Under the pieces are notes generated by a model. It worked only from the letters and a program-made list of their open reading frames with translations. It was not told the origin of the DNA and ran no database searches. The position numbers and the translations under genes are program-made. From Candidatus Zixiibacteriota bacterium (GTDB lineage: Bacteria > Zixibacteria > MSB-5A5 > GN15 > FEB-12), in NCBI GenBank assembly GCA_019038695.1, contig JAHOYZ010000028.1, positions 12,492-76,491 on the forward strand: a DNA stretch of 64,000 nucleotides, read 5' to 3'. Below, in pieces: positions 2,490 to 21,876 of the stretch (the stretch's first letter is position 1; each line of letters begins with the position of its first letter).

Positions 2490-2518
2490 GCGGTGTTGGT
2501 TATACGAATTTCGCAACT
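2490..2518 (+). repeat. att-like repeat, L family
   Basis: GCGGTGTTGGTTATACGAATTTCGCAACT; family also at 3624, 13355, 17481, 17556. Confidence 0.8.
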
Positions 2519-2706
2519 ATCTGCAGTGGGAGGACACCAGGAACCTTCTTGAATCCTACACCGGGTTCTGCTGAGTGCCGGTCGCAACTGGGTGATGGAG
2601 AACGCGGCCCAAAGGACATTGCCAGAGCACAAACCGTGGCTTAGATTGCAACACCACTTGTCCGAATTGTCTAAAGACGTACTCGCCGGACCAAACCTGA
2701 CATTCT

Positions 2707-3420
2707 TCAATCCTTCACACAGCGCACTGACTTTCCCGCATACGGCCAACTTCCACCTCGAAGGATCTCAGCTGATCTATAACTCAAACTGGTATTGAGC
2801 ACTGTAGTAGCATTCAGGTAGGATGATGTCCAGAAATATGCCTCCTCTTCCATTCTATCAAAGTGGCCGGCGGGCATACGCTGGCCGCCGGGAAGGGCAG
2901 TAAATCCGTACTCATCTGAGGCTCCCGTGTTTGGACTGCGCCAATGGTTTGTCCCACGTTGTTTCAATTTACCACCGGCCGTGTAGTAGTCACCGACAAA
3001 ACCGATAAGAGTCTGCCATTCACTGTCGGACGCCACATGCCAACCTGCAGGAGCAATTTTGCGGCTATCAACTACCGCATACGAGTTATATATCCTTCCG
3101 TATGTGTCGATGATTGTATCACTGTTATTGTAGGAGCAGCAGGCACCGACTCTGGTTTCAAACCAGCCCGTATTGTCGGTGATTACGTTGATCTCATCGC
3201 CGTTGCGATAATGAGTCACGCGCAGGTTTTCAGCCATCCACCACTGGTTGCCAATCTTCACCGTGGCATAGACATTTCCATCAAGATCAGTGACACTCCC
3301 GGTTTCGATTGTGTTTTCATCACCTGAGTTAGCAGGATTGTCATCGCCACATCCCAAAGCGCAGAGAACCAGGCCGAGTGCTATCAGGATTGTGAAAAGA
3401 AAGAACCATGAAGATTTCAT
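2707..3420 (-). CDS. FISUMP (Fibrobacter succinogenes major paralogous domain) lipoprotein
   Basis: Lipobox ALGC; DLDGNVYATVKIGNQWWMAENL, PAGWHVASDSEW, SVRCVKD. Confidence 0.9.
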   Translation of the reverse strand: MKSSWFFLFTILIALGLVLCALGCGDDNPANSGDENTIETGSVTDLDGNVYATVKIGNQWWMAENLRVTHYRNGDEINVITDNTGWFETRVGACCSYNNSDTIIDTYGRIYNSYAVVDSRKIAPAGWHVASDSEWQTLIGFVGDYYTAGGKLKQRGTNHWRSPNTGASDEYGFTALPGGQRMPAGHFDRMEEEAYFWTSSYLNATTVLNTSLSYRSAEILRGGSWPYAGKSVRCVKD

Positions 3421-3623
3421 GACTCACCTCACGGTTTACCTAAGGTATTCATGTCAACATTAACATAGGCAGCATAGATCATACTGTCAATGTCGATTAG
3501 AATCGGCGAGATGCCGTCTGCTGCGAGGGAGATAGAAGAAATTTTGTCGTATATGACGGAAGTACTGCCTATCGACTGTCGTGGCGGGAGCGTAAGGCAT
3601 TGTTGTATTACGGCTTAATGAAA

Positions 3624-3652
3624 GCGGGGGTGGTTATGCGAAGCCCGTAATT
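3624..3652 (+). repeat. att-like repeat, L family (degenerate)
   Basis: GCGGGGGTGGTTATGCGAAGCCCGTAATT, ungapped alignment to the L consensus. Confidence 0.65.
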
Positions 3653-3839
3653 TTTATAGTGGGAAGCGACCAAACCAAAGGTGTTAATTCAAACAATATT
3701 ATAATAATGTGAGGGTTACTTACGATATTTGAGTTGCGAATGTAACCATTGGTCAATTGAAGACTGATGCAATAACGATGTCGGTACCGCCCTCGCTGTT
3801 GACGTTGCCGCAAATATAAAAGGGCACTTGAACGGATGA

Positions 3840-4892
3840 TTATGCCAACCCGCGGCTTTCGAGGCGTATCTTTTCCCAGGTTGGAAAATCTTTAGGCGGG
3901 TGGACTATCTCACTCTCCGGTTTTAGTTTCAATTCGATCGCTTCCTCTGGGCATTCTGTCACGCACAATCCGCATCCGATACATTGTTCACGTATGATAA
4001 CCGAAACATCATCCTCCGTTTCAATCGCGTTCACCTGGCATCTATCATGACAGGTCTGACAATCGCTGCAATTATCGGAGTCAACAACAGCGTAGTAGTT
4101 GGCATAGGCAACCGATTTACTTATGCCCCATTCTGTGATCCCCCGCAAAACGGCGCAACAGCATCCGCAACAATTGCAAATATACCCGATACCGTCAGTG
4201 ACGTTGCTAACGCAGTGCACCAGTCCGACTTCTTCAGCCTCATCAAGAAGCGCCAAAGCTTCTTCCTGCGATATAGAATCGAATCCCGGCGTTCCGCTCT
4301 GTAGATTGAACACCAGACAATTCCTGACAGGAAAATCACATTTTTGTCCCAGATGCGCTTTTTGAACCCGGCAAATACAATCATGATTGGCAAACGACTT
4401 CGCTTTCATAAGGATTTTCTTGACGTCATCGTATGGAAGCACCCAATCTCCCGTGACCGCACCCCGCACCGGAATCACGCGATGAAGCGCCGGATCATAC
4501 TTCATAATTCCTGCCGCTCCGCCGTCCGCGAGGTAATCATCAACCAACTGAGCCAGTTCCTTGTCCATGCTAAATACTTGTGCTTCATAAATCCCTACAA
4601 CGAACGGAGCCAATCGGAACTTCACATCGTCGGAGCTTCTATCAAGCCACACCAACCCTTTCTGAGCCATTTCTTTTAACGCGGCCGCCACCTCGTCGAC
4701 AGGAAGTCCGGCTCTATGCGCAATAGCTTTGGTCGGTTCCATTGTCCCGGTTAAACACCCCACCAGCTTTGCTTCTTCCTCCGAAAATATCTTCTGCAGC
4801 AATGTAATTTCAACATTGGAAGGAGTCCGCGGAAATCCGTTTGGTAATCTATCCAAAGCCTGCGCCAGTTTTTCATAAATTTCAGTATTCAT
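3840..4892 (-). CDS. 4Fe-4S dicluster protein with N-terminal wHTH-like region
   Basis: CSDCQTCHDRC and CIGCGLCVTECP ferredoxin motifs plus ICNCCGCCC; start taken at MNTEIY. Confidence 0.8.
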   Translation of the reverse strand: MNTEIYEKLAQALDRLPNGFPRTPSNVEITLLQKIFSEEEAKLVGCLTGTMEPTKAIAHRAGLPVDEVAAALKEMAQKGLVWLDRSSDDVKFRLAPFVVGIYEAQVFSMDKELAQLVDDYLADGGAAGIMKYDPALHRVIPVRGAVTGDWVLPYDDVKKILMKAKSFANHDCICRVQKAHLGQKCDFPVRNCLVFNLQSGTPGFDSISQEEALALLDEAEEVGLVHCVSNVTDGIGYICNCCGCCCAVLRGITEWGISKSVAYANYYAVVDSDNCSDCQTCHDRCQVNAIETEDDVSVIIREQCIGCGLCVTECPEEAIELKLKPESEIVHPPKDFPTWEKIRLESRGLA

Positions 4893-5089
4893 CCTTTTCC
4901 TGTCCTTCTGTATTAGTTCCCACTCATTCGTTCCCACCGGAACCTGCAATTAATGATTGATGCTATAAATAAGGGGAAGTATACCGATTGAATCAAGAAT
5001 AAATGTAATTAACGGGGGTCCTATGTCTAATGACACTCTTGTGTGGCGAGGATCCGTAAGTTATTGTGTATCAAAATAAGTAACCCCAA

Positions 5090-5108
5090 TATCACTCTCA
5101 GAAAACTT
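5090..5108 (+). repeat. T-family arm; perfect 17-bp inverted repeat with 6442-6458
   Basis: TCACTCTCAGAAAACTT (5092-5108) vs AAGTTTTCTGAGAGTGA (6442-6458). Confidence 0.75.
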
Positions 5109-5621
5109 TGGTGGAATTCGATTTCGAGGTGAGATACGGCTATTTCATTTTAATCGGAACGAGATGGAAAACAATTAAATAGAGGATTAGAACCCCATAT
5201 TCGCGTGGCAGCACAAGGAATTACACAATATTTTGACCATATTGTGACCGTTTTCCGGGGTGTATTTCAGCAGTAGCATCTTCTCGGTCACGACATGGTC
5301 TTCAGCCTGGAACCTATAGAATTGACGCATATCGAAACAGCTTTACCGGAGGAGTTAGTACCATATCAAACAACAGTATGCGCACCTGCCGGCTCTACCC
5401 AGTCGACAAGGGTTGAAGGGATTGGGATAGTCCTGAGTCATAACTGTCCTTTGAATCGTCGCAGGGATGAGGATGTTACTTTGTCCCAGTATAGCGGCAG
5501 CAAGCCACTGTCGTTACCCTGATTTACAAATGTAATTCCAAGGATTTATTGACACTGTCATTCCGGTATGCAGAATTGCCACACAAAACCGATGAATAAT
5601 AGTACATTAGAAGGCAAGAAT

Positions 5622-6281
5622 ATGATTAGAAGATTAGCTTTTTTTGTGGCACTGCTGGTGCCCTCTGTTGCAACTACAACCGAACGTATGATTGGCCTTG
5701 TCGAGGTCGCTGCTTTCCACGAGATCTCGGGTAAAGATGGACAGGACATACCCAGAGGGCCGGTTGTTTTATATGTAGAGCCAAATATTGACGCGAAGAT
5801 TGCGGTTGTCGTTCGAGACCATAAGCACTTGGAGTCCCGCGAACACAGCTACGAACAGGTGTCCGCTGTGGTTTACGATCGAACCAGAAATTCGGGTGGA
5901 GACTTCTGGTACAAGCTCCGGTACTTTGACGGGGAGAAGGAGATCTTTGGGTGGCTAAGCCAAACCGACGCCGGCAAGTTCCGAAGCTACCCTGATATCG
6001 TAGTACGCGATTTGACTTATTTGTCTGCCGATTGGGACAAACGGCTTTTCGAGCGCCCCGACACATCTGCTCCATTCAGACAATTTGAGGAATTGGGAGA
6101 ATATCCAGACGTGCGCGTGGCCGATGTTAAGTATGTTAACGAGGATGTCTGGTTTCTTGTCGTAGTAGTTGATGGTAATATCTGCACTGGCGGAGGAACT
6201 AACATCATTGCAACAGGCTGGGTATTAGCTTACGCAGAGAACGGCTCAGCTACAGTTTGGTACTACTCGCGCGGTTGTTGA
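5622..6281 (+). CDS. Hypothetical secreted protein
   Basis: Open 219-aa frame with signal-like MIRRLAFFVALLVPSVA; start uncertain. Confidence 0.6.
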   Translation: MIRRLAFFVALLVPSVATTTERMIGLVEVAAFHEISGKDGQDIPRGPVVLYVEPNIDAKIAVVVRDHKHLESREHSYEQVSAVVYDRTRNSGGDFWYKLRYFDGEKEIFGWLSQTDAGKFRSYPDIVVRDLTYLSADWDKRLFERPDTSAPFRQFEELGEYPDVRVADVKYVNEDVWFLVVVVDGNICTGGGTNIIATGWVLAYAENGSATVWYYSRGC

Positions 6282-6441
6282 AATCGTAAAATATACATTG
6301 TTAAAACGAGTAGTAATAATTGAGGATTTCTTACCCTGATCATACTATCCTCATTGTATATTTAGGTTTTAATCATTTGCAGGGCTTTTCGCCGCCTACC
6401 CCACGCATGAATATAAGATAACTGGAACGCAAATGCTGGAT

Positions 6442-6461
6442 AAGTTTTCTGAGAGTGAGGT
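6442..6461 (-). repeat. Inverted T-family arm
   Basis: Reverse complement ACCTCACTCTCAGAAAACTT; first 17 nt identical to 13890-13906. Confidence 0.75.
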
Positions 6462-6509
6462 TTGTTGGCTGACAGATGCTATAAGCTAATGAATAAAACG
6501 GTACAAAAA

Positions 6510-6541
6510 GCGGGGCATACGAAACGCGTTCATCAACTGGG
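6510..6541 (+). repeat. att-like repeat, R family
   Basis: GCGGGGCATACGAAACGCGTTCATCAACTGGG, aligns to the 9510 copy. Confidence 0.7.
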
Positions 6542-6719
6542 TAATTGAAAACATCGAAGCGTGAGACATCACACTCCTGCCATTTAACTTCTTCTTTCGC
6601 TATACCCACTTCAAGGTACCGGACCGTAGAAGAAGTGGACAGAAACTATTTGATGATGTATGATACATTGAAAGTTTTAATATCTTGTTTTGATGTCCAG
6701 TAGATTCATATAACGAGAA

Positions 6720-7376
6720 TTGTTACCCGTGAAGATAAAAGCTGTATTTTTTGATTTGGATGGAACAATAATTAGGAACACCGATTCTGTTAGATATCTC
6801 TGTATACAAAATGATAGATTAAGTGAATTTGAAAAAATAGAATGCCTTGAAGACGATAACAATATTCCGTGGATTGAGGCCGATTATCTTAAGGCAGAAC
6901 TAATCAAAGGCCTCAGTTTCAGAGATGCAGATGACAAATTCGATGACAATATAGAACTTATTCAGAATCTGGAAATGGTTTTGACATATTTGAAAGAAAA
7001 GGGAGTGAAATCGGTACTAATAACAGCAGGGCCAATTCAAGTTGCCAATATCCTCGGGACTAAATTTGATTTCGATGGTATTTATGGCAGTCAGTATGAA
7101 TTAAAAGACCAGAAATTTACCGGAAAGATCTTATCTCACCTGGGAAGTAAAGGAAAGGTAAATGGTCTTAATGATTTTTGTGCAAATAACAGTATTTGCT
7201 TGAACCAGTGTGTTGCAATTGGAGATAGCGAATCAGATATTGATATCTTTAAAAAATGTAGTAAGTCAATCGCCATAAACTATTCCGACGCATTGAAGGG
7301 AAAGGCATCTGATTATATTATCACCGATGATCTTTCGGACATTATTGATATTATTGAATCCTGGCTCGCCGAATAA
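6720..7376 (+). CDS. HAD-superfamily phosphatase (phosphoserine phosphatase-like, IB)
   Basis: FDLDGT motif I, ITAG motif II, GDSESD motif IV; AT-rich. Confidence 0.88.
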   Translation: MLPVKIKAVFFDLDGTIIRNTDSVRYLCIQNDRLSEFEKIECLEDDNNIPWIEADYLKAELIKGLSFRDADDKFDDNIELIQNLEMVLTYLKEKGVKSVLITAGPIQVANILGTKFDFDGIYGSQYELKDQKFTGKILSHLGSKGKVNGLNDFCANNSICLNQCVAIGDSESDIDIFKKCSKSIAINYSDALKGKASDYIITDDLSDIIDIIESWLAE

Positions 7377-7486
7377 GTAATGTCGAACTGATAATGTGGC
7401 TTCAGTATCATGGCGAGGTTGCTGGGATGCATATCGAAACTTTCTGGTAAGTAAGACAGGAGCATCTGGCTCCCGTCATATACTTG

Positions 7487-7981
7487 TTAGAAAGACCAGT
7501 TGACTATAGGAAAGACTGGAAACTGACCTCCCTGCTTGATGATATTCACCAATCCGATCTGCAAACCTTTCATGCTCAAGGCATAGTTGACAAGCCCAAG
7601 TTGAAATCCACTGGCGTGGCCAGCGTAGTTCACAACACCCCACTGGAACCCTTCGAAATTACCTTTGGTAATGTTCACCGCAGTGCTCTGCCAGCCCGTG
7701 AAGTCGGCGTCAACAAGACCGACAAACCCGAACTGCACACCCTTGGACATGCCCGAAGTAGAATGGCTGACAAGCCCCCAATCCAAGCCCGTGACATACT
7801 TATTCCGTCCGTACAGCAAACTGAGTCGAACACCTGATATTGGATTCTCTTCAGGAACGAGTTGAATCGGAGAAAACAACGAAAGCTGGATCGGCTTCTC
7901 CTGAGCCAGTACCGGCTGGGCAACAAGAATGAGAGTGAGGATCGCAACCCCGAATAGACTACAGTTTTTCTTAGACAACAT
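7487..7981 (-). CDS. Secreted protein with LA_2272-like GxQxGLVN repeats
   Basis: Signal peptide; repeated GFQWGVVNY/GFQLGLVNY/GLQIGLVN; terminal Phe. Confidence 0.7.
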   Translation of the reverse strand: MLSKKNCSLFGVAILTLILVAQPVLAQEKPIQLSLFSPIQLVPEENPISGVRLSLLYGRNKYVTGLDWGLVSHSTSGMSKGVQFGFVGLVDADFTGWQSTAVNITKGNFEGFQWGVVNYAGHASGFQLGLVNYALSMKGLQIGLVNIIKQGGQFPVFPIVNWSF

Positions 7982-8151
7982 ATCCTCCTATCTGTTGATT
8001 CCCACAATTACTAGGAACTCTAGTGATAAATATACGAAATCCCGTATCCATATTCAAGCTAAAGCAGATTCCACAAGATTGTGCAGCGGTTCAGCCTAAT
8101 CAGGACACGGTTGACTTGAAGTTAAGCCGTGTCTTGCTAAACAAGTAGAGT

Positions 8152-8244
8152 AGTTCTTGACAATGAACAGTCAACTGTTTGTTAATGTGTTGTATTGTAG
8201 GCTATTACGATAGATGCAGGGTTAACCGTTCAATACCCAGAATT
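8152..8244. repeat. Composite attP-like junction: inverted P arm, 25-bp palindrome, tRNA core, direct P arm
   Basis: AGTTCTTGACAATGAACAGTCAAC (8152-8175); TAAT-N17-ATTA (8183-8207); GCAGGGTTAACCGTTCAATACCCAGAATT (8216-8244). Confidence 0.7.
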
Positions 8245-8403
8245 TTTCATCTGAGTTTTCAGATCGATTAGGAATATTGGGAAAAGCGGTGTTGAGGTCA
8301 CAATCGACAGTATTTTTTGGATGCGATTTTGGCTCCAATAGCCCCGAGTCACATAAACTTTGGCAATGACGTTATTGGTTAGTAGTGGTGTTTTTTACTG
8401 AAA

Positions 8404-9486
8404 TCAGAATCGCTTCTGGTAGAAATGGCAGTAGGGCATTTTGCCGGTGTCTTCATAATAATCCTGATGGTATTCCTCGGCCGGCCAGAACTCTCCTGCA
8501 GGTACCACCTCGGTAACCACATCGAACCCCTTCTCCTTCAAAATCGTGATAAGCTCCAGAGTCACCTTTTCTTGTTCATCACTGGTTACCAGGACCGCCG
8601 ACCGATACTGCGGTCCAACATCTAGCCCCTGGCAATTGCTCTGAGTCGGGTCGTGGATTTCAAAAAAGAACCGTGCCAGAGTCTCAAAGGATGTCACCGA
8701 TGGGTCAAAGGTTATTTCGACAGTCTCCGTATGACCTGTCTGGCCTGCGCAGACTTCGCGGTAGCTCGGGTTCTCCGCCACTCCACCCATGTATCCGACC
8801 TCAGTTTCCAGTACCCCTTCCTGCTGGCGCAGCAGATGTTCGATTCCCCAGAAGCAGCCGCCAGCAAAATAAGCCTTCTCCACTCCTCTGGACGTTTCTA
8901 CGGGAACGAAGACGAGTGAGATGGAATTGACGCAGTGCCTGGTATTTTTAGGAGTGAAACCTTCGCGCAGAAAGACGTGACCCAGGTTTCCTTCACAGCT
9001 GACGCAGACAATCTCTGTTCGGTTGCCGTCGGTATCAGGCTGGTGCTTCACTGCTCCGGGTATTTCATCGTCGAAACTCGGCCAACCACAGCCTAATGAG
9101 AACTTGTCCTCCGATCGGTACAAAGGTGCATTGCACTGCTGGCAGATATATGTACCGATCTGTTTGTGATCATTGTACTTGCCACTGAACGACACTTCTG
9201 TACCCTTATGAACAATGACTCGCTCTTCTTCCAGAGTCAGCTTGTTGTATGTCATAATCTTCTCCTTGCTACCTGCTATATCTTCCGATTCTGCGATTGC
9301 ATAAGTCAGTAGCGTCATCAGAATCATGAGAATTGCGCCGGAGGTAAATTTTACTCGTCGCCTTATGCTCTTCAAATCATCCATCATGTGATAAAACGGT
9401 CTCGGGATACGATTTGTGCCCGGTTTCATCAACCCTTCCCGAGCCACCGGTATTGACATTACGAAACGAAGGCTTTGTAGGTACAA
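8404..9486 (-). CDS. msrAB: Bifunctional methionine sulfoxide reductase MsrB-MsrA, probably exported
   Basis: MsrB GCGWPSF and RHCVNS; MsrA FAGGCFWG and AEEYHQDY; hydrophobic N-terminal stretch; true start probably downstream of 9486. Confidence 0.93.
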   Translation of the reverse strand: MYLQSLRFVMSIPVAREGLMKPGTNRIPRPFYHMMDDLKSIRRRVKFTSGAILMILMTLLTYAIAESEDIAGSKEKIMTYNKLTLEEERVIVHKGTEVSFSGKYNDHKQIGTYICQQCNAPLYRSEDKFSLGCGWPSFDDEIPGAVKHQPDTDGNRTEIVCVSCEGNLGHVFLREGFTPKNTRHCVNSISLVFVPVETSRGVEKAYFAGGCFWGIEHLLRQQEGVLETEVGYMGGVAENPSYREVCAGQTGHTETVEITFDPSVTSFETLARFFFEIHDPTQSNCQGLDVGPQYRSAVLVTSDEQEKVTLELITILKEKGFDVVTEVVPAGEFWPAEEYHQDYYEDTGKMPYCHFYQKRF

Positions 9487-9509
9487 CTCAGGGTGAGCTA
9501 ACGAGAATG

Positions 9510-9545
9510 GCGGGGTGGACGAGACACGTTCCGCAACTGGGTGAT
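9510..9545 (+). repeat. att-like repeat, R family (longest tRNA-Asp homology)
   Basis: GCGGGGTGGACGAGACACG vs tRNA reverse complement GCGGGGTTGACGAGACTCG (17/19), followed by TTCCGCAACTGGGTGAT. Confidence 0.85.
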
Positions 9546-9584
9546 AGAGAATTCGGCAGCGTGATTATGGAGGAAGCAACGTCT

Positions 9585-9926: not shown

Positions 9927-9997
9927 ATAGGGCTCCTTTCACATCAAGTGCGACATCTACCGCCCTTTGGTCCGCCACTTATTATCACTCTCCGCTC

Positions 9998-13341: not shown

Positions 13342-13354
13342 CTTCATATCTATG

Positions 13355-14021: not shown

Positions 14022-15008
14022 TTATTTCTCGTCAAAGGTGATGACCACTTTTCCTCGTGCGTGTCCTTTTTCAACATATCGGATCGCCTCAGGAGTTTCA
14101 CTCAAAGAGTACTTCCTATCTACTACAGGCGCTATTTTGCCGGCCTCCAAAAGCTCCTTTATGAAGACCAAATCTGCCTGATTCACGTTCGCCATGAATG
14201 AAATAACTTTTCTATCCTTCATCCTTGCAATAAGAGGATTGAAAATCAGCGATTGTAGAATACTCGAAGTTGATGAAGAGCCGCCAACTCCGACATATAT
14301 GCCGGTAGCTTTTAGCACGCGCAGAGGCTTTCGTATTGAATGAAATGCGGCATTGTCTAAGATCAGATCATACACCTTCCCGCTCAACCAGAAGTCTTCT
14401 TTAGTATAATCTATCACGTGATCTGCGCCAATCGACCGAACCATCTCGAAGTTTTTTCCGCTACACACTCCGGTTACTTGCGCTCCTAGCATCTTAGCTA
14501 TCTGTATCGCAAATGTCCCCACTCCACCGGATGCGCCGTTGATCAAGACATGTTGTCCTGATTGCAGTCGTCCGTGATCACGAAGAGCCTGCAACGCTGT
14601 AATGCCGGCGACCGGCACAGTTGCCGCCTGCTCAAGAGTCATGGCTGTCGGCTTCAGCACCAATTTGTCCTCGCGAACACACGCATATTCTGCAAATCCA
14701 CCCATGCTCGAGCCAAAGACTTCGTCACCAACCTTAAACTGAATTACATCCTTACCAACAGCTTCAACCCGGCCAGCCATGTCGGCACCGAGTATCTGGT
14801 GTTTCGGTTTCAGAAGTCCAAAGCCCATTAGTCGAACCAGAAAAGGCTCGCCACGTAGAATGTGCCAGTCAAGCGGGTTCACCGACGCCGCATGTATCTT
14901 TACCAAAGCTTGATTGTCTGTTGGCGCGGGCTTGTCGACTTCTTTCAGTTCCAAGATATCGGGCGATCCATATCTTGTGCGTACGATAGCTTTCATATTA
15001 AACCCCAA
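14022..15008 (-). CDS. NAD(P)-dependent MDR-family oxidoreductase (zinc-independent, quinone reductase-like)
   Basis: SVNPLD, NGASGGVGTFAIQ, GHARGKVVI. Confidence 0.92.
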   Translation of the reverse strand: MGFNMKAIVRTRYGSPDILELKEVDKPAPTDNQALVKIHAASVNPLDWHILRGEPFLVRLMGFGLLKPKHQILGADMAGRVEAVGKDVIQFKVGDEVFGSSMGGFAEYACVREDKLVLKPTAMTLEQAATVPVAGITALQALRDHGRLQSGQHVLINGASGGVGTFAIQIAKMLGAQVTGVCSGKNFEMVRSIGADHVIDYTKEDFWLSGKVYDLILDNAAFHSIRKPLRVLKATGIYVGVGGSSSTSSILQSLIFNPLIARMKDRKVISFMANVNQADLVFIKELLEAGKIAPVVDRKYSLSETPEAIRYVEKGHARGKVVITFDEK

Positions 15009-15024
15009 TGTTTAATACACGATA

Positions 15025-15642
15025 TTAGCGGTTCGTTGTTTTCCTTCTCCTAAATTCATCTTTCGATATTGTCCTTGTTAGGTGATAATATAGGAATAAT
15101 TTTTTTACGATAAATATTATCCCAGTTCTAACATATAGATAAAGTACAACTCCTATTAAAGCTAATATAGTACCCACTCCTGTGGGAAGAACTGCACCAA
15201 TTGTAAATGTCATACCAATGACAAATCCTAAGAAACATTCTGCTCGATAAATTGGATAGAACAGAGCCAATAGAAAAAGTCCATACATCATATAGCCTGA
15301 AAGATTTGAATAACCAAGAGTGAAAAATACAGAAAGTAGTATTCCGAATGATAAAGCAAAGAGAAACCCGTAAGTATATTTTATTGGAAAATTTAATAGG
15401 TTTGACTTATTATCATTATTACGAATTAGTCGTTTTTGTATGCGATAAGTTAAAGACAATGTAAGTAAAGGAAGTAAGAGACCACTCCACCAATTAGAAA
15501 TTTTAGGCAAATCCCCCCGTTGTAATATATGGTGGCTTGGTACACCACCATGGTAGTGATCCCATATCAATAGTGACCATATGCCAACTGTTACTATTCC
15601 TGTAAAATATAGACTTCTTTTATAAAACGTTTTTTCGGTCAT
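15025..15642 (-). CDS. Hypothetical multi-pass membrane protein
   Basis: About 5 TM segments; HGGVPSHHIL motif; very AT-rich. Confidence 0.7.
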   Translation of the reverse strand: MTEKTFYKRSLYFTGIVTVGIWSLLIWDHYHGGVPSHHILQRGDLPKISNWWSGLLLPLLTLSLTYRIQKRLIRNNDNKSNLLNFPIKYTYGFLFALSFGILLSVFFTLGYSNLSGYMMYGLFLLALFYPIYRAECFLGFVIGMTFTIGAVLPTGVGTILALIGVVLYLYVRTGIIFIVKKLFLYYHLTRTISKDEFRRRKTTNR

Positions 15643-15720
15643 AATGATTTGATTTTAAGCGGCTTGTTATTTTTTCTTTTCTTGTTGTCTACTGTCAATA
15701 GGCGAAACTGTCTATTGTCA

Positions 15721-16431
15721 TTATTGTCTTTCAATTGCTGATATATTGTTTTTTACACCTTTAATTAAGAGCCATAGGGTTATTGAAATTTCTCCTAGAA
15801 TCAAGAAAGGCATTGCGAATTGTGTAACAATAGTTTGGTAATCAGGAAAAAGTAAAGATACGAATGAATGTATGATGTAAGCTATACCATTAAGAATTAG
15901 AAAAACCCCAATTAAACGAGGGATGAATCCCGATTTATAAGCCAAATAACCAAATGGCAAAAGCCAAAGTCCCCAGAACATTTCTAATGTCAAACTCCCG
16001 TAATTATTAATTTTTAGAAAAAGCATTGCCAAATCTTGTCTTTGACTAAGTTCAAATGTTTTCAATACTTCGCCTTTAAAAATCATAAGGGAAGCAATAC
16101 TAAATCCGTCCATAATAAAAATCACAGGAATTGTCACAGAAAACAATGCTACTATAAGTAAAGCTTGATGTTTATTCACTTGTTCGAACAATTTATAAAG
16201 AGCGAATAATAAAAAGATACAAATAGTAACACTAAGAAGATCATTTATTATACCTGTTCGAAACATAAACTCATTACTTAGTAATTTATTGGCTGTGGCA
16301 ACTGCATTGCCCGCAACAATAGTTTGTGAAGGAACATATATCATCCCATATATGCCAGTTATTACCCAAATAAGATATAGTCCGCCAGCAAGTCTTGCGG
16401 TCTTTTTTAGAGTGAACACTTTATTTTCCAT
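15721..16431 (-). CDS. DUF4386 family membrane protein
   Basis: ARLAGGLYL, FWGLWLLPFGYL, GEISITLWLLIKG. Confidence 0.85.
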   Translation of the reverse strand: MENKVFTLKKTARLAGGLYLIWVITGIYGMIYVPSQTIVAGNAVATANKLLSNEFMFRTGIINDLLSVTICIFLLFALYKLFEQVNKHQALLIVALFSVTIPVIFIMDGFSIASLMIFKGEVLKTFELSQRQDLAMLFLKINNYGSLTLEMFWGLWLLPFGYLAYKSGFIPRLIGVFLILNGIAYIIHSFVSLLFPDYQTIVTQFAMPFLILGEISITLWLLIKGVKNNISAIERQ

Positions 16432-16461
16432 ATATCTATTTTTATTAGATTTTTGTAATTT

Positions 16462-17178
16462 CTATTGATTTACCGGATTTGGCTGAGCTTTTAATCCCTT
16501 AATCAGAAGCCAAAAACCTAATGTTAGTTCGAAAATAGTTAAAGGCACATCGAACAAACCTATGTGAACTATCTCTCCATAGCCAGGGAAAATGAGGTAA
16601 GCAAAAGCACAGAACACACACCATGCCGATGATGTGATGCCAAAAATAGCTAATGTCTTTGGTATATACTTTGATTTGAGCAATAGGTAGCTGCAAACCG
16701 TAGCAGCTAATCCCCAGAACGGCAGGCCAACATAGTATGCGTCCCAACTATTGTTAAGAAGTAACCTCGATAGGGCTTGTAATTGATCTGTCTCAAAGAC
16801 TTTCAGGAAACCGGCATCACCCAGAAGGCGCAACGCACCAAATGTATTGATAGCCATAATGGCCCACATAGAAGCATATACGAACCTGGTTAATGCTGCT
16901 GTCAGAGCAAAATTCTTGTTAACCGGCTTGAGTATCACATAAAGCGATGTTGACATTAAGATCAGGGTTGCAAGGTAGATTAGATTACAAATAATGTTGA
17001 AACGAAACAATGTTTCATGTGCCAACATGTTCCGGGCAGTTTCTGCAACATCCGAAACGATAAACCGAAAGCCGACGCTGTAATTTGAAATAACTACAAT
17101 TGCGATCGCGAATATTAAAGTGAATCCAGCGATTCGTGCGGCCTTGTGTTGTGACTCATTGGGTGCGATGTTTGTCAA
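16462..17178 (-). CDS. DUF4386 family membrane protein (paralog)
   Basis: AARIAGF, LLLKSKYIPK, FELTLGFWLLIKG. Confidence 0.85.
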   Translation of the reverse strand: MTNIAPNESQHKAARIAGFTLIFAIAIVVISNYSVGFRFIVSDVAETARNMLAHETLFRFNIICNLIYLATLILMSTSLYVILKPVNKNFALTAALTRFVYASMWAIMAINTFGALRLLGDAGFLKVFETDQLQALSRLLLNNSWDAYYVGLPFWGLAATVCSYLLLKSKYIPKTLAIFGITSSAWCVFCAFAYLIFPGYGEIVHIGLFDVPLTIFELTLGFWLLIKGLKAQPNPVNQ

Positions 17179-17480
17179 ATCAATTCGTCCTTTCCGGAAG
17201 GATTAGAGTATTTCCATGCATACTAATCCTGTATTCTTTCACAGATCTAAATCATTATTCTAAGGAATACGAAGTTCCCACCCCAGATGTTTCACGGAGA
17301 AGCACGGCCAGTCTTTGGAACTACAGCATCGAAGTATCGCCTGAATTCGCGTGCTAAATTTTTCCGACGTCTCGATACACCAGTAGCAAAGAGGAAAGAT
17401 TGGTAAAGAGTTTTGTGAGAGTGCTGTTAGCGATTCGGAGCGGCCGCTAACTCATCGGAATCCTAATAGATATAATAAAA

Positions 17481-17584
17481 ACGGGGTTTGTTAGATGATC
17501 TTCGCAACTTTTGTTTTACGAGAGAATTGAATTAGCCCTTTAGACTATTGAAAAAGCGGGGTTGGTTGTACGAATTTCGCAACT
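17481..17584 (+). repeat. Doublet of L-family att-like repeats, 75 bp apart
   Basis: ACGGGGTTTGTTAGATGATCTTCGCAACT (17481) and GCGGGGTTGGTTGTACGAATTTCGCAACT (17556). Confidence 0.8.
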
Positions 17585-17726
17585 TTTTGCTGCATGACAA
17601 TTACATGATGGGGAGGGTGGAATGTGTAGAAGTAGGGAGAGGTTGAGATGGATGTTGTCTACGAAGACACTTGTTGAATATTTCTCTCTTTGGCTGGTAG
17701 TTAGTTTAGACTGGAGGATGAAATAG

Positions 17727-17984
17727 ATGAATGCTTATAAAATCGAAATCGGGGAAGCTGTTCGAGTACGCAAGATGTTCTTTTACGAAACTCAAATTGC
17801 TTATGCCGGGATGCCGAGTGCGGATATATATTCATTGGTAATTGTAAATACCGAAGCTCATAATTCCTGGTCGTTTAATCTCTATGTACCTGTTAGAAAA
17901 AAAGAGATTAAGATAAGCAAGGGGACAATCCGGGTGGTTAGGGTTGATGAGAATTCGGTTGAGTTTGAGTTCTTGAAGAATTGA
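17727..17984 (+). CDS. Hypothetical protein
   Basis: 85-aa ORF between att-like repeats; GGAGG upstream. Confidence 0.45.
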   Translation: MNAYKIEIGEAVRVRKMFFYETQIAYAGMPSADIYSLVIVNTEAHNSWSFNLYVPVRKKEIKISKGTIRVVRVDENSVEFEFLKN

Positions 17985-18099
17985 TGGAGCGGATTGGTCT
18001 GAAACGACACTGTCAAATATGCAAAGTGATAAGGAGTGTCAATGATTAGACTCGAACTGAAAAGGAGTGTATGTGAATGTAGAACAACGACTTATATAA

Positions 18100-18188
18100 G
18101 CGGGGTTGACTGTTCAATACCCAGAACTTTTCGGATGAGGTTCCGGCTGGCCTAGGACAAAGCGGGCCGTTACTGACAGACTTGGAAC
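18100..18188 (+). repeat. P-family plus Q-family att-like repeats, 62 bp apart
   Basis: GCGGGGTTGACTGTTCAATACCCAGAACT (18100) and GCGGGCCGTTACTGACAGACTTGGAAC (18162). Confidence 0.82.
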
Positions 18189-18582
18189 ATATCTACTTAC
18201 CAATCCAAACCCGAAGGTCATGGAAGTGCTTGAACCAGTGGGACGGTTGTCTGCTTGGCGTGTGACGAACTGAGCGAAGCTGGTTTGCGGGTCAGCTGCT
18301 ATCACTGGTTAAGTACACTGGTTCCTATTGATGCTTCTATTCCCGGTCATAATTTCTCGACTATGGAGCAGAGTCCATATTGGCCGCGGCAAAACATCCA
18401 GGCCGTCTTTGAGACTATTTGCTTGCTCGTAAATGCCACACTATAGATAATGCGGTGGTTGATTGATATGAAACTATGGAAGTGACTGCCTTTGAAGCCA
18501 AACCAGATATGTTGGACGGTCACGAAACAGCTCTACTAAATTTCGATGCCAGACTTAATCCTAAGATGAAGGGAGGAGAAAG

Positions 18583-19086
18583 TTGAAAAAGATGCTCGTA
18601 GTCTCATTACTTTTTCTTGCAATATGTACTACCTGTTCAATGGCAGGTGAGGCAAGCCACAAGAAGACTGCTTTGGAGCTCCTGGAGATCACTAACGCAG
18701 AAGAGACGTTTGATCAAATGTTGACATCAATGGAAAGCATGATGGAACAACAGCTGATAGCAACCGATCTGACACAAGAGGCAAAAGAAGCTTCGCAAGC
18801 TATGCAGAAGGAGATGATGGATTGGATGTCTGGGTTCTTTAGTTGGGAACAGCTACGAGAACAGTACGCTGATATCTATGTTGAAGTCTTCACTGAAGGT
18901 GAATTGAAGGAGCTTATTGAATTCTATCAATCTCCTATTGGACAGAAGTTTCTCAGCAAGATGCCAGACATCATTCAAAAGTCAATGGAATTGACGCAAA
19001 CTGTGGCTTTGGATATGTGGCCAGAGTTTAATGAACGACTTCAGAAGAGAATCTTGGAACTCGATGAAGAGCAGGAAGACGACTAG
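18583..19086 (+). CDS. DUF2059-family secreted protein
   Basis: Signal peptide; FTEGELKELIEFYQSPIGQK; GGAGG RBS, TTG start. Confidence 0.85.
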   Translation: MKKMLVVSLLFLAICTTCSMAGEASHKKTALELLEITNAEETFDQMLTSMESMMEQQLIATDLTQEAKEASQAMQKEMMDWMSGFFSWEQLREQYADIYVEVFTEGELKELIEFYQSPIGQKFLSKMPDIIQKSMELTQTVALDMWPEFNERLQKRILELDEEQEDD

Positions 19087-19311
19087 TTTTCAGACATAAC
19101 ACAAGCATATCACGAATGTGACCGCGCACAGACTGTGCAGCGATATATCGTTCAGAGTTTGTTCTGGAAGTTCGAATTGGCACATAGCTGAAGTATTGCA
19201 GTATTCAGTTCTAAGAGCAGCTACTAACAGGTTTTGCACGATTCTGCAATCCGGGAAGGCAACCGAAATCAGGCAGAAGATTAGCTGCATTGAAGCCTCG
19301 AGTGCCTAGAC

Positions 19312-19440
19312 CTGACAGTCTTGGAAACGCTAAGTCGATCGTTCGTAGCTGGATATGTAAATGCGGGGTTGACTGTTTAATACCCAGAACTTTTAGGATG
19401 TGGTTTAGGCTATGCTGACAGGAAACTCGGGGTTGACTGT
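19312..19440 (+). repeat. Triplet of att-like repeats (Q arm, P, P-like)
   Basis: CTGACAGTCTTGGAAAC (19312); GCGGGGTTGACTGTTTAATACCCAGAACT (19363); TCGGGGTTGACTGT (19427). Confidence 0.78.
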
Positions 19441-20005
19441 ACGTCTTCAGACAATCCGGACAAAGCACCTTGAGGCCCAAGCCATAGTCTGTACTCTGTC
19501 ACCTGTCCATCATATCAACTGAGTCGATGAGAGTAGAGCGCAATACTAGTATGACACCGATTCCAATCTTAGAATGCGTTAGATGGGAAGCAGAAAATCG
19601 AGAAAGGAGCGGCACGACAATATGTGATGCCACTGGCTACAATGAATGGCGGAGAAAGTAGGCTTCTAACCGAAGTACACAGACATTTACTCACATGTCA
19701 TAATCTGTATTAAACAGAAAACAACCGAGAAATGGCACAAATCTATTATATGTACTTGCAAGCTATTGGGAGACAAGGCCGAGCAACAGACTCAAGTCCT
19801 CTCACGCCAACCATCTTGTCATCCCCGACTAAGACACAATTGGACGCCAAGACAGGGAAGAGGCAACAGCTATTACGGAAGCATGCAATGTGATTTGAAA
19901 TGGACTTTGCTTACAGTCATCTCGAAACTGCTTCAAAATGAAAGAACCAACTCTTGACCGCCGTCGTAAGGCTGTGTAGATGAGGGGATTACAGCCTACG
20001 TCTTG

Positions 20006-20093
20006 CCGGGGACTGCGAGACATTCTCCCCGATCAAGAGATGTGCAATATCGTTAGGTTACAACAAGAAAGCGGGCTTTACGAGACGAGTTCC
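20006..20093 (+). repeat. Doublet of degenerate R-family att-like repeats
   Basis: CCGGGGACTGCGAGACA (20006) and GCGGGCTTTACGAGACGAGTTCC (20071), with CGAGAC at the same offset as in the 9510 copy. Confidence 0.55.
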
Positions 20094-20227
20094 TAAAAGC
20101 CTCGTCAAGCCGTTCTCTCATGCTTTTGCGGATCTGGAGCAAGGTCGGGGAGCAATCCACCCGCTGGCATCTCTGCCAGCGGGCTCATGTCTAATCGAAT
20201 GTTCAGTAGGTCGAAGTCGGCTTCCGG

Positions 20228-21466
20228 CTATCCGAAGATGACACGCGCTATAAGCAGTTGCAAGTCGCTGATGGTCACCACGCCATCGCCGTCAAGGTCA
20301 CCCGATTCGATTGAATTGGGCGCCGGACCACCCAGGAAGAGATAGCTTACCATATATGTTAAATCGGCAATATTAACTTGGCCGTCGAGATTCAAGTCAC
20401 CCGAAATGTGACCAATGAGCGTGACATCGCCAAGAAACAGAAACGGCGAGCCATCATAGTACATGCCTGAAACTGTGTAGGTCTCGGACACGGTGTCCCA
20501 GAACGTCATGTAGCCAAGAATAAAGTCTCTCATCGGGCAGGTGATTTCCAGCACACCGCCGGTGAAGTCGGGATGCGAACCGAGGAGCGTTGTCGCAACC
20601 GGCGCAATGCCACCATTGATCTGCACCGTTGAGGGATCAATGTCAACGACCGTGTGCCCATCGGTAATATCCCCGACATAGATACTAGTCGTGAGCACGG
20701 GAACGGTATAAGCCTGGTAAGTGTGCATCGTGTCCGGATCGATCAGAGACACTCCGTTCGATCCGCAATTCCCTTCCAGAGAATTAAGTCCCTCTGACCA
20801 GAGCTCAAGGTTCCACGTAAAGCCAGCATCGTCAATAAGATCCAACCATTCTCCGTTGTAATTGTTGTACGTGGCGTTACTTCGCGGTGGAACAATAACA
20901 CCATCATCTACGACTACGTCCAGTAAGTCGAAACCGAGAGCGGTCGGAACCCAAAGTCCTGCATAGTAGGGTCCTGTCACACAGCATGGGTCGGGAAAAG
21001 GCAGACTCACGATGTAAGCCCCTGGGCTGGGGAAACTGACAGTGTACAGTGGCCCTGGGCATATCACATTACCTATGACGTCGGGGTCACCATAATCGAA
21101 CACGAGTGGCTGCATTTCAACGGTCAATGCCTGTTGCACGTGGACGGCCCAGTTGATGGCCGTAACTTCGAAGGGGTAGGTATTAAGGCATCCTGTCTCG
21201 ACCGGATCTTGATAGGCGGCGTAGTACTCCTCCCCGTATAACCACCCACCGACGAAGTAGGCTAGGCCGCCCTGCCACTCGCCGTCACAGAAGGCACGGT
21301 TGCCACCCTGGTCGGGCTGAATTAATTGGGGCGTGATGTTTACAGGTGTCGCGGTTAACGCAATGGCCTTCACTTGCTGTGGTTTTTCAATCGGGTCTGC
21401 CCAGGATGGTGCGATCAGGAGCACCAGCAGTCCCATGGCAACCAGGAGCGTAAAGGTTCGCTTCAT
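20228..21466 (-). CDS. Secreted protein with C-terminal dockerin-like domain
   Basis: AGGGAG RBS, MKRTF signal peptide; GDLNLDGQVNIADL and GDLDGDGVVTISDL duplicated Ca-binding repeats. Confidence 0.85.
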   Translation of the reverse strand: MKRTFTLLVAMGLLVLLIAPSWADPIEKPQQVKAIALTATPVNITPQLIQPDQGGNRAFCDGEWQGGLAYFVGGWLYGEEYYAAYQDPVETGCLNTYPFEVTAINWAVHVQQALTVEMQPLVFDYGDPDVIGNVICPGPLYTVSFPSPGAYIVSLPFPDPCCVTGPYYAGLWVPTALGFDLLDVVVDDGVIVPPRSNATYNNYNGEWLDLIDDAGFTWNLELWSEGLNSLEGNCGSNGVSLIDPDTMHTYQAYTVPVLTTSIYVGDITDGHTVVDIDPSTVQINGGIAPVATTLLGSHPDFTGGVLEITCPMRDFILGYMTFWDTVSETYTVSGMYYDGSPFLFLGDVTLIGHISGDLNLDGQVNIADLTYMVSYLFLGGPAPNSIESGDLDGDGVVTISDLQLLIARVIFG

Positions 21467-21737
21467 GACAATCTCCCTTCTGTGGATAAGTGAATATCGC
21501 AGTACAGACCTAATGTAGTCTATTTTGCCCTTGTCGTCAAAGCTTTTTGCAGTGTACGGAGGCACAGATGGAACTTTGTGAACGCACCGCTCCTTTTTGA
21601 ACCCGTCGTGTTTATAGCAAACGCATCAACGCCGATGAGATCGTCCCATACCTCTCAATTATTCCGATGTACTGCAGTACAACTAAATACGGGTCTGGGC
21701 GGGGATACGGTTGAGGAGATCGGAGCGAACAAGGAGG

Positions 21738-21812
21738 AGTTCTGTGTGTTGAACAGTTGGCGTTCTGCTAATGAACTGTATTGTAGTAGATTACGATAGA
21801 TGCGGGGTTGAC
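21738..21812. repeat. attL-like block abutting tRNA-Asp: inverted P arm, 25-bp palindrome, core
   Basis: AGTTCTGTGTGTTGAACAGT at 21738; TAAT-N17-ATTA at 21769-21793; AGTT-to-core distance 64 bp, as at 8152/8216. Confidence 0.75.
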
Positions 21813-21876
21813 GAGACTCGAACTCGCGGCCTCCTGCGTGACAGGCAGGCGTTCTAACCAACTGAACTACAACCCC
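21803..21876 (-). tRNA. trnD: tRNA-Asp (GTC)
   Basis: GGGGTTG/CAACCCC acceptor stem, CCTGC-CTGTCAC-GCAGG anticodon arm, GTTCGAG T-loop; CCA not encoded. Confidence 0.97.

Follow-up and report, generated by a model that had tools for sequence, protein, structure and literature searches.

The window analysed here, a 64-kb stretch of DNA (64,000 nucleotides of contig JAHOYZ010000028.1, below called contig C12) from a Candidatus Zixiibacteriota bacterium, contains an island of small gene cassettes that ends at a tRNA-Asp(GTC) gene and in which every cassette begins at a short site of constant orientation. We consider it probable that this array represents about 20 stacked insertions at the extreme 3' end of tRNA-Asp, made by large serine recombinases (LSRs) that target tRNA genes. 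With slightly less assurance, we favour the view that the cassettes were inserted and shuffled by site-specific recombination, the island serving as a platform, rather than left behind by the slow decay of large elements. The units inserted were probably recombinase-less cassettes, served by an LSR in trans. The evidence comes from the anatomy of the sites, from the linkage of their arms to LSR genes and tRNA-Asp in related genomes, from the conservation of these arms in the face of complete cargo turnover, and from the permutation of cassettes at the site core.

The island covers positions 2490-21801 and holds 20 co-oriented junctions on the plus strand, in addition to the tRNA itself, which delimit 20 cassettes; 14 of these carry one to four genes on either strand, and the other six are empty units of 62-75 bp. 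A first-pass annotation of this DNA had listed fifteen such sites with AACT or AATT at an offset of 26-29 or 25-28, had put their total at about 20, and had described modules of one to four genes in mixed orientation. All fifteen lie where it placed them, on the plus strand and with the motif at those offsets, and sites at 5083 (T arm, decayed core), 7413 (U arm), 8286 (P2 arm), 19427 and 20071 complete the 20. tRNA-Asp(GTC) was called by ARAGORN and Rfam at 21802-21876 on the minus strand, and the plus-strand text of its 3' end is GCGGGGTTGA. The GC content of the island is 0.39-0.48 as against ~0.51 in the remaining window, the exception being the tRNA-proximal cassette at 0.52.

The cargo is a mixture of accessory genes that run both ways and have terminators of their own, and includes genes for a Fib_succ_major lipoprotein, a 4Fe-4S protein, a HAD hydrolase, MsrBA, a STAS protein, two dockerin proteins, an S41-like peptidase, a cupin, a quinone-oxidoreductase-like protein, two DUF4386 proteins and a DUF2059 protein. 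A family scan of the island proteins found no mobility genes among them. As the first-pass annotation had stated, a recombinase is missing locally: domain scans, including PF00589, found neither tyrosine nor serine recombinases on contig C12, the five PF00589 matches in the genome all lie on other contigs, and tblastn (E<1) found no LSR fragments inside the island. When the cargo proteins were looked up by exact sequence in other assemblies, the matches came from the source sample only. The tRNA-Asp arrays of relatives (L013, L014, L018, L032) carry many large secreted proteins with dockerin or type IX secretion system sorting domains, among them a C10 peptidase-dockerin protein, a tricorn-like S41 protease and TPR/FlgO proteins, a parallel to the two dockerin proteins of the window.

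The junctions share one layout, in which the end of a cassette is followed by a short stretch that is A-rich or reads ...ATG, then by GCGG(G), and then by an arm. Read on the tRNA strand, a site consists of a family-specific arm ending in ...AGTT-N15/16, followed by (C/T)CAACCCCGC and by TTTT... or CAT.... The match to the tRNA extends over about 5-10 nt, and the arm beyond it differs from the tRNA T arm; the R and L arms resemble a diverged T arm. The arms fall into families designated L, P, P2, R, T, U and Q, and it is the ~13 nt between two conserved blocks that vary. U (GCGAGGTTGCTGGGATGCATATCGAAACTTT), a sixth family beside the five first listed, is represented at 7413. The first-pass annotation had held that each of its five families recurs at least three times, which is so for L, P, T and Q; R is a looser grouping of the arm at 9510 with variants at 2561, 6510 and 20071.

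Counted from the G of GC, AACT occupies positions 26-29 in the L, P and R arms, 25-28 in the T, Q and U arms and 20-23 in tRNA-Asp. With its preceding base the box becomes (C/G)AACT at 25-29 in L, P and R and at 24-28 in T, Q and U, and GAACT at 19-23 in the tRNA, where it is the reverse complement of the universal T-loop GTTC. Arms and tRNA acceptor strand have a proximal block, GGGGTTGA(C), in common, and the AACT of the arms lies 5-6 bp further out than the T-loop GAACT of the tRNA. A shift of +5 also occurs at the far end of an LSR element that the same genome carries at tRNA-Arg (C27:874 versus 17906), and a shift of +6 at an Asn-type site at C13:20254. An information profile covering 55 junctions of more than 20 genomes has the same two blocks, GCGGGGTTGA and AACTT, separated by a low-information spacer; information is high from GC to +30 and nil to the left of GC beyond -4. 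In recombinase-less junctions the left flank has AAA or ATG at -1 to -4 and nothing further. The P' sequence found at the C-terminal end of LSR genes, AAAGCCCTTCAGC-N6-GCTGAAGGGACTCAAACTCAAAAATG, is kept in 4 of the 55 junctions, and in none of the 20 in the window.

Across the arm families GCGG(G) alone is invariant, core positions 6-10 co-vary with the arm family, and the breakpoints seen in natural populations fall inside GCGG. The invariance of GCGG(G) together with the co-variation of positions 6-10 fits a 2-bp crossover and not the 6-8-bp identical overlap of a tyrosine recombinase. The crossover may be placed inside GCGG, and its dinucleotide is probably GG, because GC and CG are palindromic. 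Cassettes often end just past a terminator hairpin, after which comes ...tctatg or a run of A, and on the tRNA strand such ends restore ...GC(CA) and a T-rich trailer. In the A118 family of integrases, attP and attB half-sites share a recombinase-domain motif, while the zinc-ribbon-domain motif of attB is 5 bp nearer the centre than that of attP (Rutherford et al. 2013, PMC3783163). Since two shared blocks with a 5-6-bp offset of AACT match this rule, we read the arms as putative donor-type (P) half-sites that mimic the tRNA acceptor stem and T arm at attP spacing, and the last ~24 nt of tRNA-Asp (acceptor 3' strand and T arm) as the corresponding recipient-type (B) half-site. The first-pass annotation had taken the sites for copies of the tRNA 3' end and had left the fixed distance of AACT unexplained; from their geometry they would instead be element-borne mimics with AACT moved out by 5-6 bp, and AACT would be the zinc-ribbon-domain motif at attP spacing.

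The sites are specific to a few places. The strict pattern GCGGG-N20-21-AAYTK has seven matches in the window, all on the plus strand and all within 3624-19392, where ~1.0 is expected and none of 100 shuffles reached seven. An nhmmer profile of the sites, run against the 3.28-Mb assembly, matched at C12:14976-32587 (plus strand), once in the tRNA-Asn island of contig C13 and once at the end of contig C16, and nowhere else; the bare 9-mer GCGGGGTTG elsewhere in the genome lacks both the A-rich lead-in and the arm. Across the phylum, GCGGGGTTG-N15-17-AACTT gave 60 matches in 45 of 285 Zixibacteria genomes, compared with 21 for the reversed control, and the L, P, P2, R, T and U arms recur among them. 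In relatives (e.g. G150, G073 and G157) the arm families likewise form co-oriented arrays downstream of tRNA-Asp.

Clustering the open reading frames (ORFs) of relatives' arrays led to a 489-aa protein in genome G019 with Resolvase, Recombinase and Zn_ribbon_recom domains, whose gene converges on tRNA-Asp. The stop codon of this LSR is the TGA of GGTTGA, its final codons ...TGG CGG GGT TGA correspond in reverse complement to ...TCAACCCCGCCA of the tRNA, and at its far end the element has a Q arm. Homologues are present in 94 of the 285 Zixibacteria genomes, and at 25 of the 30 best loci the 3' end of the LSR gene adjoins or overlaps a convergent tRNA (tRNA-Asp six times, and also Asn, Gln, Arg, Ser, His and Glu). 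Three more loci have an arm immediately after the LSR 3' end, a T arm in G148 and G142 and a U arm in G144. LSR tails that are truncated lie against an L arm in G075:C259 and against P/P2 arms in G093 and G150, and a metagenome contig (L171) has an L arm next to an intact LSR, on its 3' side. All arm families of the window thus have a tie to the LSR family, and three nearly identical LSRs from a single genus adjoin tRNA-Asp, a T arm and a U arm, respectively. The proposal that the sites are att-type junctions anchored at tRNA-Asp is borne out, but the enzyme linked to them in relatives is an LSR and not the tyrosine-type integrase that had been expected to duplicate the tRNA 3' end.

In a tree of the LSRs, target tRNAs cluster by clade (16 changes, as against 21.1 when the labels were shuffled, a number as low being reached in 0 of 200 shuffles). 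The tree has two Asp clades, and hosts of different families and classes are intermixed. The search for recombinases elsewhere in the genome, which the first-pass annotation had proposed, turned up two intact LSR elements, at tRNA-Arg(CCT) on contig C27 and at tRNA-His on contig C3, neither of them of an Asp clade. Beyond the phylum, LSR relatives at 27-40% identity come from Patescibacteria, Alpha- and Gammaproteobacteria, Cyanobacteria, Elusimicrobia, Desulfobacterota and Dehalococcoidales, and in 24 of 42 such loci (L089-L130) a convergent tRNA (Ser, Gly, Gln, Asn, Pro or Val) abuts the 3' end of the gene. The literature that we searched holds no description of a clade of LSRs that targets tRNA ends or of cassette arrays of this kind. 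The last ~45 nt of the LSR genes (AAAGCCCTTCAGC-N6-GCTGAAGGG..., encoding ...KPF..IAEG...) form a GC-rich hairpin, followed on the tRNA strand by a T run (L033-L062, e.g. L022:1241-1300), and the coding end of the LSR may double as a transcription terminator for the invaded tRNA. We also considered cassettes consisting of the LSR alone, and dropped the idea when no site was found within 1.5 kb upstream of the LSR genes.

The arms are conserved between genomes and the cargo is not. Between genera the arms are 85-100% identical, while core genes and DNA are ~75% identical, and the window genome has no cargo genes in common with two congeneric genomes; module content is thus far from invariant among relatives, a possibility that had been raised against the array. 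Synteny with the same two genomes revealed no conserved flank from which an empty site could be recognised. At the population level we used Logan assembled contigs from independent marine-sediment and cold-seep metagenomes, in which cassettes of the window occur at 92-99% identity. In run X11 the cupin cassette is followed by GCGG and a T arm where the window genome has an L arm; in run X12 the HAD cassette is followed by the T arm of cassette 4; and in run X14 the arm of position 6510 forms an empty unit beside that same T arm. The 75-bp unit at 17481 is absent from a contig of run X10 with precise ends (joint 17474>17553), a P unit lies directly against tRNA-Asp in run X7, and the L arm at 17553-17589 is found in many unrelated contexts in other metagenomes. 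Cassettes are re-joined in natural populations, with breaks at the GCGG core.

A mechanism may be proposed from these observations. GCGG(G) would hold the crossover and correspond to the terminal bases of the tRNA (on the tRNA strand, ...CCCCGC[CA]), and the ~30 nt to the right of GCGG(G) would make up the P half-site of the next cassette, at the end distal to the tRNA. The recombinase domain would bind the proximal block GGGGTTGA(C), and the zinc-ribbon domain the distal AACT(T) box, a T-loop mimic at attP spacing; the ~13 nt between the blocks would be free to vary, hence the arm families. New DNA would enter at the tRNA-proximal junction and push older cassettes outward. A cassette would need a P arm at one end and ...GC(CA) with a T- or A-rich trailer at the other; the latter would restore the tRNA end and provide an attB-like site where a further insertion could take place. 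Delivery and shuffling would be the work of LSRs acting in trans, supplied by LSR-bearing elements of 11-25 kb such as those seen at tRNA-Asp in relatives.

If the island is indeed a platform, a mini-cassette would be made up of a single P-type half-site, a gene equipped with its own signals and the few bases with which the tRNA ends. It would be inserted at the tRNA end by an LSR in trans, and the tRNA and a fresh attB would be rebuilt each time, allowing unlimited growth of the array and its reshuffling in populations. The T-loop GTTC, universal in tRNAs, would offer a ready-made zinc-ribbon-domain motif and let recombinases hop between tRNA species. We suggest tentatively, and with rather more doubt than for the array itself, that Zixibacteria run an LSR-based gene-capture platform that is integron-like in outcome and that may extend to other phyla with tRNA-abutting LSRs.

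The principal alternative is that the island is a graveyard, each cassette being the remnant of a once-complete LSR element of 10-25 kb, so that the recombinase-less cassettes never moved by themselves and the array is inert. Canonical LSRs, which need complete sites, and the lack of any LSR here to move anything would agree with such an origin, as would the C-terminal LSR fragments of 100-250 aa at some junctions of relatives (G150, G093, G075, G001 and G122) and the two LSR tail remnants in the tRNA-His island of this same genome. Random decay, however, should leave a continuum of pseudogene pieces, whereas a P' or LSR remnant persists in only 4 of the 55 junctions and in none of the 20 here. 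The cassettes are small and clean: six are units of 62-75 bp, and many are shorter than an LSR gene, contain no LSR fragments and end cleanly just past the terminator of a gene, which on the platform reading means that they are not decayed elements. The arms, moreover, are conserved far above background, and cassette order is permuted at the core between populations. We therefore favour a platform over decay, because P' remnants are few, cassette ends are clean, arms are conserved while the cargo turns over, and populations differ by permutations at the core; decay of complete elements we regard as rather unlikely. The first-pass annotation had offered the choice between a graveyard and an integron-like platform loaded in trans, and that choice was the right one to pose, although the parts of an integron are lacking (no IntI, no attC palindromes).

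Several points weigh against insertion and shuffling by LSRs in trans. The distance of the AACT box from the presumed centre is 22-26 bp, compared with 16-24 bp for the zinc-ribbon-domain motif of the Listeria enzyme (A118 family), and the assignment of domains is approximate. A second half-site is not recognisable in 51 of the 55 recombinase-less junctions, which are thus neither canonical attP nor attL sites; a search of such junctions for a symmetric P' half-site found none, the few inverted arm copies 45-65 nt away not being general. Canonical LSRs need two half-sites and recombine attP with attB only, so junctions with a single half-site need relaxed rules for insertion or excision; relaxed site rules are reported for Ccr. 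No recombinase is encoded on contig C12 and no Asp-clade LSR in a genome that is 96% complete. The metagenome contigs are short, of low depth and from mixed relatives. Finally, in three of nine members of the Asp-type clade the LSR gene is followed by another arm, so that insertion beside an occupied site also happens, and the picture in which attB is regenerated only by recombinase-less cassettes is incomplete.

Tandem accretion by tyrosine integrases, of the Islander or tycheposon type, would make the sites displaced 3' ends of tRNA-Asp. tRNA genes are the usual targets of these enzymes, the genome has a classical case at tRNA-Met (C15, with an integrase at 7364 and a repeat of at least 22 nt at 43572), and long tRNA copies that are exact persist in a tRNA-Lys array on contig C6. 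The sites of the window are nevertheless identical to the tRNA over ~5-10 nt, the remainder being a mimic at an offset; an identical overlap of 6-8 bp is incompatible with core positions 6-10 that differ between arm families; and the arms abut LSR genes. Contig C12 has no tyrosine recombinase, and several array-bearing relatives have only tyrosine recombinases of Xer size, far from the arrays. This account is largely refuted and in our view very improbable.

We give still less credence to the possibility that the sites have nothing to do with recombination and are a repeat of the repetitive extragenic palindromic (REP) kind, a promoter or terminator module, or a small RNA gene resembling a tRNA end. 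They do lie between long family-matched ORFs, with A-rich runs before them and sometimes after terminator hairpins. Profile matches confined to so few places, in tRNA islands and in one orientation, exclude a genome-wide REP or terminator, and so the generic repeat in both orientations against which the first-pass annotation had cautioned was not found. In relatives the sites are joined straight to LSR stop codons. A search of the window against Rfam (E<=1) returned the two tRNAs only, and the sites match no RNA family; folding the 62-75-bp units as tRNA-like molecules was rejected, there being no 5' acceptor partner by eye and no ARAGORN call. Consensus scans for sigma-70 promoters and terminators miss the sites, whose orientation is unrelated to that of the flanking genes, and promoters of FCB type or for sigma-54, judged by eye, were dropped for the same reasons. 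A true integron platform (IntI with attI and attC) or cassettes of the Xer/dif-module type, which the small, mostly single-gene cassettes between short conserved sites and the empty units might bring to mind, can be virtually dismissed, in that no IntI or other tyrosine recombinase is nearby, the sites read GTT...AAC within ~30 nt and not AAC...GTT, lack the R''-L''/L'-R' imperfect palindrome and are conserved on one side only, the arms are not dif-like inverted 11-mers, the genes run in both orientations with their own terminators, and the anchor is a tRNA end and not attI.

The individual cassettes, all on the plus strand by site orientation, are described here from the distal end inward, with the strand of the cargo in brackets. 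Cassette 1 (2490-2560), at the distal junction, is an empty unit of 71 bp with an L arm (GCGGTGTTGGTTATACGAATTTCGCAACT) that also occurs in at least five other genomes. Cassette 2 (2561-3623) has an R-like arm (CCGGGTTCTGCTGAGTGCCGGTCGCAACTGGGTGATGGAG) and the gene for the Fib_succ_major lipoprotein of 237 aa (2707-3420, minus); cassette 3 (3624-5082) has an L-like arm (GCGGGGGTGGTTATGCGAAGCCCGTAATTT) and the gene for the 4Fe-4S protein of 369 aa (3840-4949, minus). The T arm of cassette 4 (5083-6509), with its decayed core (AACCCCAATATCACTCTCAGAAAACTTTGG), is the one found behind other cassettes in runs X12 and X14; its cargo (5568-6281, plus) encodes 237 aa without a Pfam match. Cassette 5 (6510-7412) combines an R-like arm (GCGGGGCATACGAAACGCGTTCATCAACTGGG) with the HAD hydrolase gene (6720-7376, plus). 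Cassette 6 (7413-8215) has the U arm, of a kind also present in relatives, and a gene for 164 aa without a Pfam match (7487-7981, minus).

Cassette 7 (8216-8285), an empty unit of 70 bp with a P arm (GCAGGGTTAACCGTTCAATACCCAGAATTT), recurs together with the arm that follows it in the tRNA-Asn island at C13:20079-20175. That following arm, P2 (GCGGTGTTGAGGTCACAATCGACAGTATTTTTT), opens cassette 8 (8286-9509), which encodes the MsrB-MsrA fusion (8404-9486, minus). An R arm (GCGGGGTGGACGAGACACGTTCCGCAACTGGG) introduces cassette 9 (9510-10490), with the STAS protein (9585-9926, minus) and a dockerin-like protein (9998-10330, minus). Cassette 10 (10491-12492) has a T arm (GCGGGCCCAATATCACTCTCCCCAAACTTTTGT) that in G148 lies directly 3' of an intact LSR gene, and encodes the S41 peptidase-like protein of 580 aa (10688-12430, plus). 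Cassette 11 (12493-13354) couples a Q arm (TCGGGCTGCTACTGACAGACTTGGAACTT) to the cupin gene (12925-13296, plus), and cassette 12 (13355-13880) an L arm to a gene for a membrane protein of 95 aa (13520-13807, minus). The T arm of cassette 13 (13881-17480; GCGGGGTGGACCTCACTCTCAGAAAATTTTGTGG) is followed by four minus-strand genes, for the quinone-oxidoreductase-like protein (14022-15008), a 205-aa membrane protein (15025-15642) and the two DUF4386 proteins (15721-16431 and 16462-17178).

Cassette 14 (17481-17555) is an empty 75-bp unit with an L-like arm (ACGGGGTTTGTTAGATGATCTTCGCAACTT), and cassette 15 (17556-18099) has an L arm (GCGGGGTTGGTTGTACGAATTTCGCAACTT) and a gene for 85 aa (17727-17984, plus). 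Between the empty P-arm units of cassettes 16 (18100-18161, 62 bp; GCGGGGTTGACTGTTCAATACCCAGAACTT) and 18 (19363-19426, 64 bp) lies cassette 17 (18162-19362), with a Q arm (GCGGGCCGTTACTGACAGACTTGGAACAT), the DUF2059 gene (18583-19086, plus) and, at its end, a Q-like arm remnant (19311-19328). The arm of cassette 19 (19427-20070; TCGGGGTTGACTGTACGTCTTCAGACAATCC) belongs to no family, and the cassette has no ORF longer than 64 aa. Cassette 20 (20071-21801), which is tRNA-proximal, has a degenerate arm that is R-like or tRNA-like (GCGGGCTTTACGAGACGAGTTCC) and encodes a dockerin protein of 445 aa (20228-21565, minus). Beyond tRNA-Asp, tRNA-Val(TAC) (21951-22024, minus) is a neighbour conserved across the phylum.

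An inverted, core-less copy of a P arm lies at 21741-21766 on the minus strand, 40-64 nt before the tRNA junction, and comparable inverted arms occur at 8150-8176 (P-like) and 6443-6470 (T-like). These three copies sit 40-68 nt to the left of junctions, and their alignment scores reach or exceed the 99th percentile for random segments of the island. The cassettes that end at 8215 and 21801 have a homologous right end of 65 nt, that is, the last 65 nt of cassette 6 and the 65 nt preceding tRNA-Asp. The inverted arm copies are possibly relics of inverted insertions, or else mark a family of cassette ends. Over the 65-100 nt downstream of two T arms (5171-5255 and 13876-13980), conservation is 76-86% in five other genomes that each have several copies, and T-arm cassettes thus share more than the 30-nt half-site.

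Other tRNA genes of the same genome (G000) have islands of their own. The island at tRNA-Asn (C13:20020-23111, L077) contains a P unit and a P2 arm ~90% identical to window 8216-8310, an L-type arm on an Asn-like core (GCTCCCCCAG) that matches tRNA-Asn of other Zixibacteria and not that of the host, a 75-nt duplication of the tRNA-Asn trailer, and at C13:22751 an exact 24-nt copy of the tRNA-Asp 3' end with the spacing of a tRNA (B type). These features suggest exchange between arrays at different tRNAs. The intact element at tRNA-Arg(CCT) (C27:874-17980, L074) is 17 kb long; the reading frame of its 490-aa LSR extends 40 nt into the tRNA, the AGTT at its far end lies 5 bp further out than the GGTT of the tRNA, and it carries a weak tyrosine-recombinase-like gene beside the LSR, two unknown genes, a complete type I restriction-modification system (HsdR/S/M) and a gene for a secreted protein of 1780 aa. 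At C3:609-13401 (L075) a distant LSR, ~24% identical to that on C27, converges on tRNA-His; two coding remnants of LSR C termini, at 10727-10948 and at 13321-13401, the latter beside a copy of the tRNA-His end, make this a small stack with its tails still visible. On contig C6 (92260-96675, L076), tRNA-Lys(CTT) has behind it four copies of its 3' end, exact over 14 nt and spaced at 0.8-1.5 kb, each of which bounds a one-gene module; a recombinase is absent from the contig, and one of the tRNA copies is exact over 45 nt, the others having T-arm insertions. We rejected this array as an instance of the same system, since, unlike the Asp sites, it has retained GTTCGAAT with the spacing of the tRNA as well as long and exact copies of the tRNA, and it is probably a different system, perhaps of tyrosine type.

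Should the reading of the tRNA-Asp array as stacked LSR insertions be correct, tRNA-anchored flexible islands would not be exclusive to tyrosine integrases, and a clade of LSRs that reads the acceptor stem and T arm would be present in a third of Zixibacteria genomes. The two shared motifs, the 5-6-bp offset and the universal T-loop would make the system a natural test of the structural model by which serine integrases distinguish donor sites from recipient sites. Cassettes of one gene and a single half-site would raise the question of how an LSR moves them and, if it can do so, would represent a second, independent route to integron-like gene capture. LSRs are valued in genome engineering, and a family that tracks tRNA acceptor stems and switches targets could inform their retargeting.

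Among known systems, integrons depend on IntI, a tyrosine recombinase that acts on folded single-stranded attC sites (RYYYAAC...GTTRRRY, 57-141 bp). The array resembles them in outcome only, with small, mostly single-gene cassettes at one anchor, permuted order and empty or near-empty units; it differs in enzyme class, in having no attC structure and no common promoter, in the mixed orientation of its genes and in its anchor, the 3' end of a tRNA. In composites of the staphylococcal cassette chromosome (SCC), such as SCCmec, pseudo-SCC and the arginine catabolic mobile element (ACME), LSRs (CcrAB or CcrC) insert elements at the 3' end of rlmH (orfX), the site is regenerated and elements stack. 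Recombinase-less members with the same short flanking sites are thought to be moved in trans; the elements measure 3-60 kb, and two cooperating recombinases are typical. LSR-driven stacking at the 3' end of a conserved gene and the presence of recombinase-less members are shared with our array, whereas in SCC the target is the protein-coding rlmH, the elements are larger and there is no tRNA mimicry.

The islands of Prochlorococcus tycheposons likewise arise by repeated tRNA-anchored integration in which newcomers push older elements outward, leaving scattered partial tRNAs and niche-adaptive cargo, but 910 of 937 elements use tyrosine recombinases, their repeats are true partial tRNAs, and they have integration and replication modules (bioRxiv 10.1101/2020.12.28.424599). 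A flexible island built at a tRNA by serial integration is common to both; the Zixibacteria junctions, in contrast, appear to be LSR half-site mimics, and the cassettes are without mobility genes. The attP and attB sites of the A118 family (PMC3783163) offer the same plan of two blocks per half-site, the proximal one shared and the distal one ~5 bp nearer the centre in the recipient, with little other identity. In Zixibacteria the offset amounts to 5 or 6 bp, the presumed centre is a few bp more distant from the distal box, and the recipient would be the T arm and acceptor strand of a tRNA; the Zixibacteria LSR itself is weakly similar to the A118 integrase (E ~2e-6).

The closest published system is that of the ssrA islands of Dehalococcoides, in which the 3' end of the gene for DsiB, a CcrB-like LSR, always overlaps attL and reads into the target RNA gene (McMurdie et al. 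2011, PMC3146451). These islands are tandem and separated by a 20-bp copy of the ssrA end, next to which lies a conserved motif that does not match ssrA, and some of them are without the integration module and have been proposed to be cis-mobilisable (PMC3146451). Zixibacteria differ from ssrA islands and SCC in their targets, which are tRNA genes (Asp, and in relatives Asn, Gln, Arg, Ser, His and Glu) and not tmRNA or rlmH, and from ssrA islands also in the size of their cassettes, 0.06-3.6 kb and mostly one gene as against ~10 kb or more, in that no DsiA-like second recombinase or six-gene integration module was seen, in their several arm families with an explicit T-loop-mimic offset of 5-6 bp, and in the host phylum. 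They share with ssrA islands the LSR 3' end that overlaps the target RNA gene (in relatives), the tandem arrays, the recombinase-less members and, next to the repeat, additional conserved nucleotides without a match in the target. SCC works alike, and the tRNA-Asp array is best read as an LSR accretion of the SCC and ssrA genomic island type.

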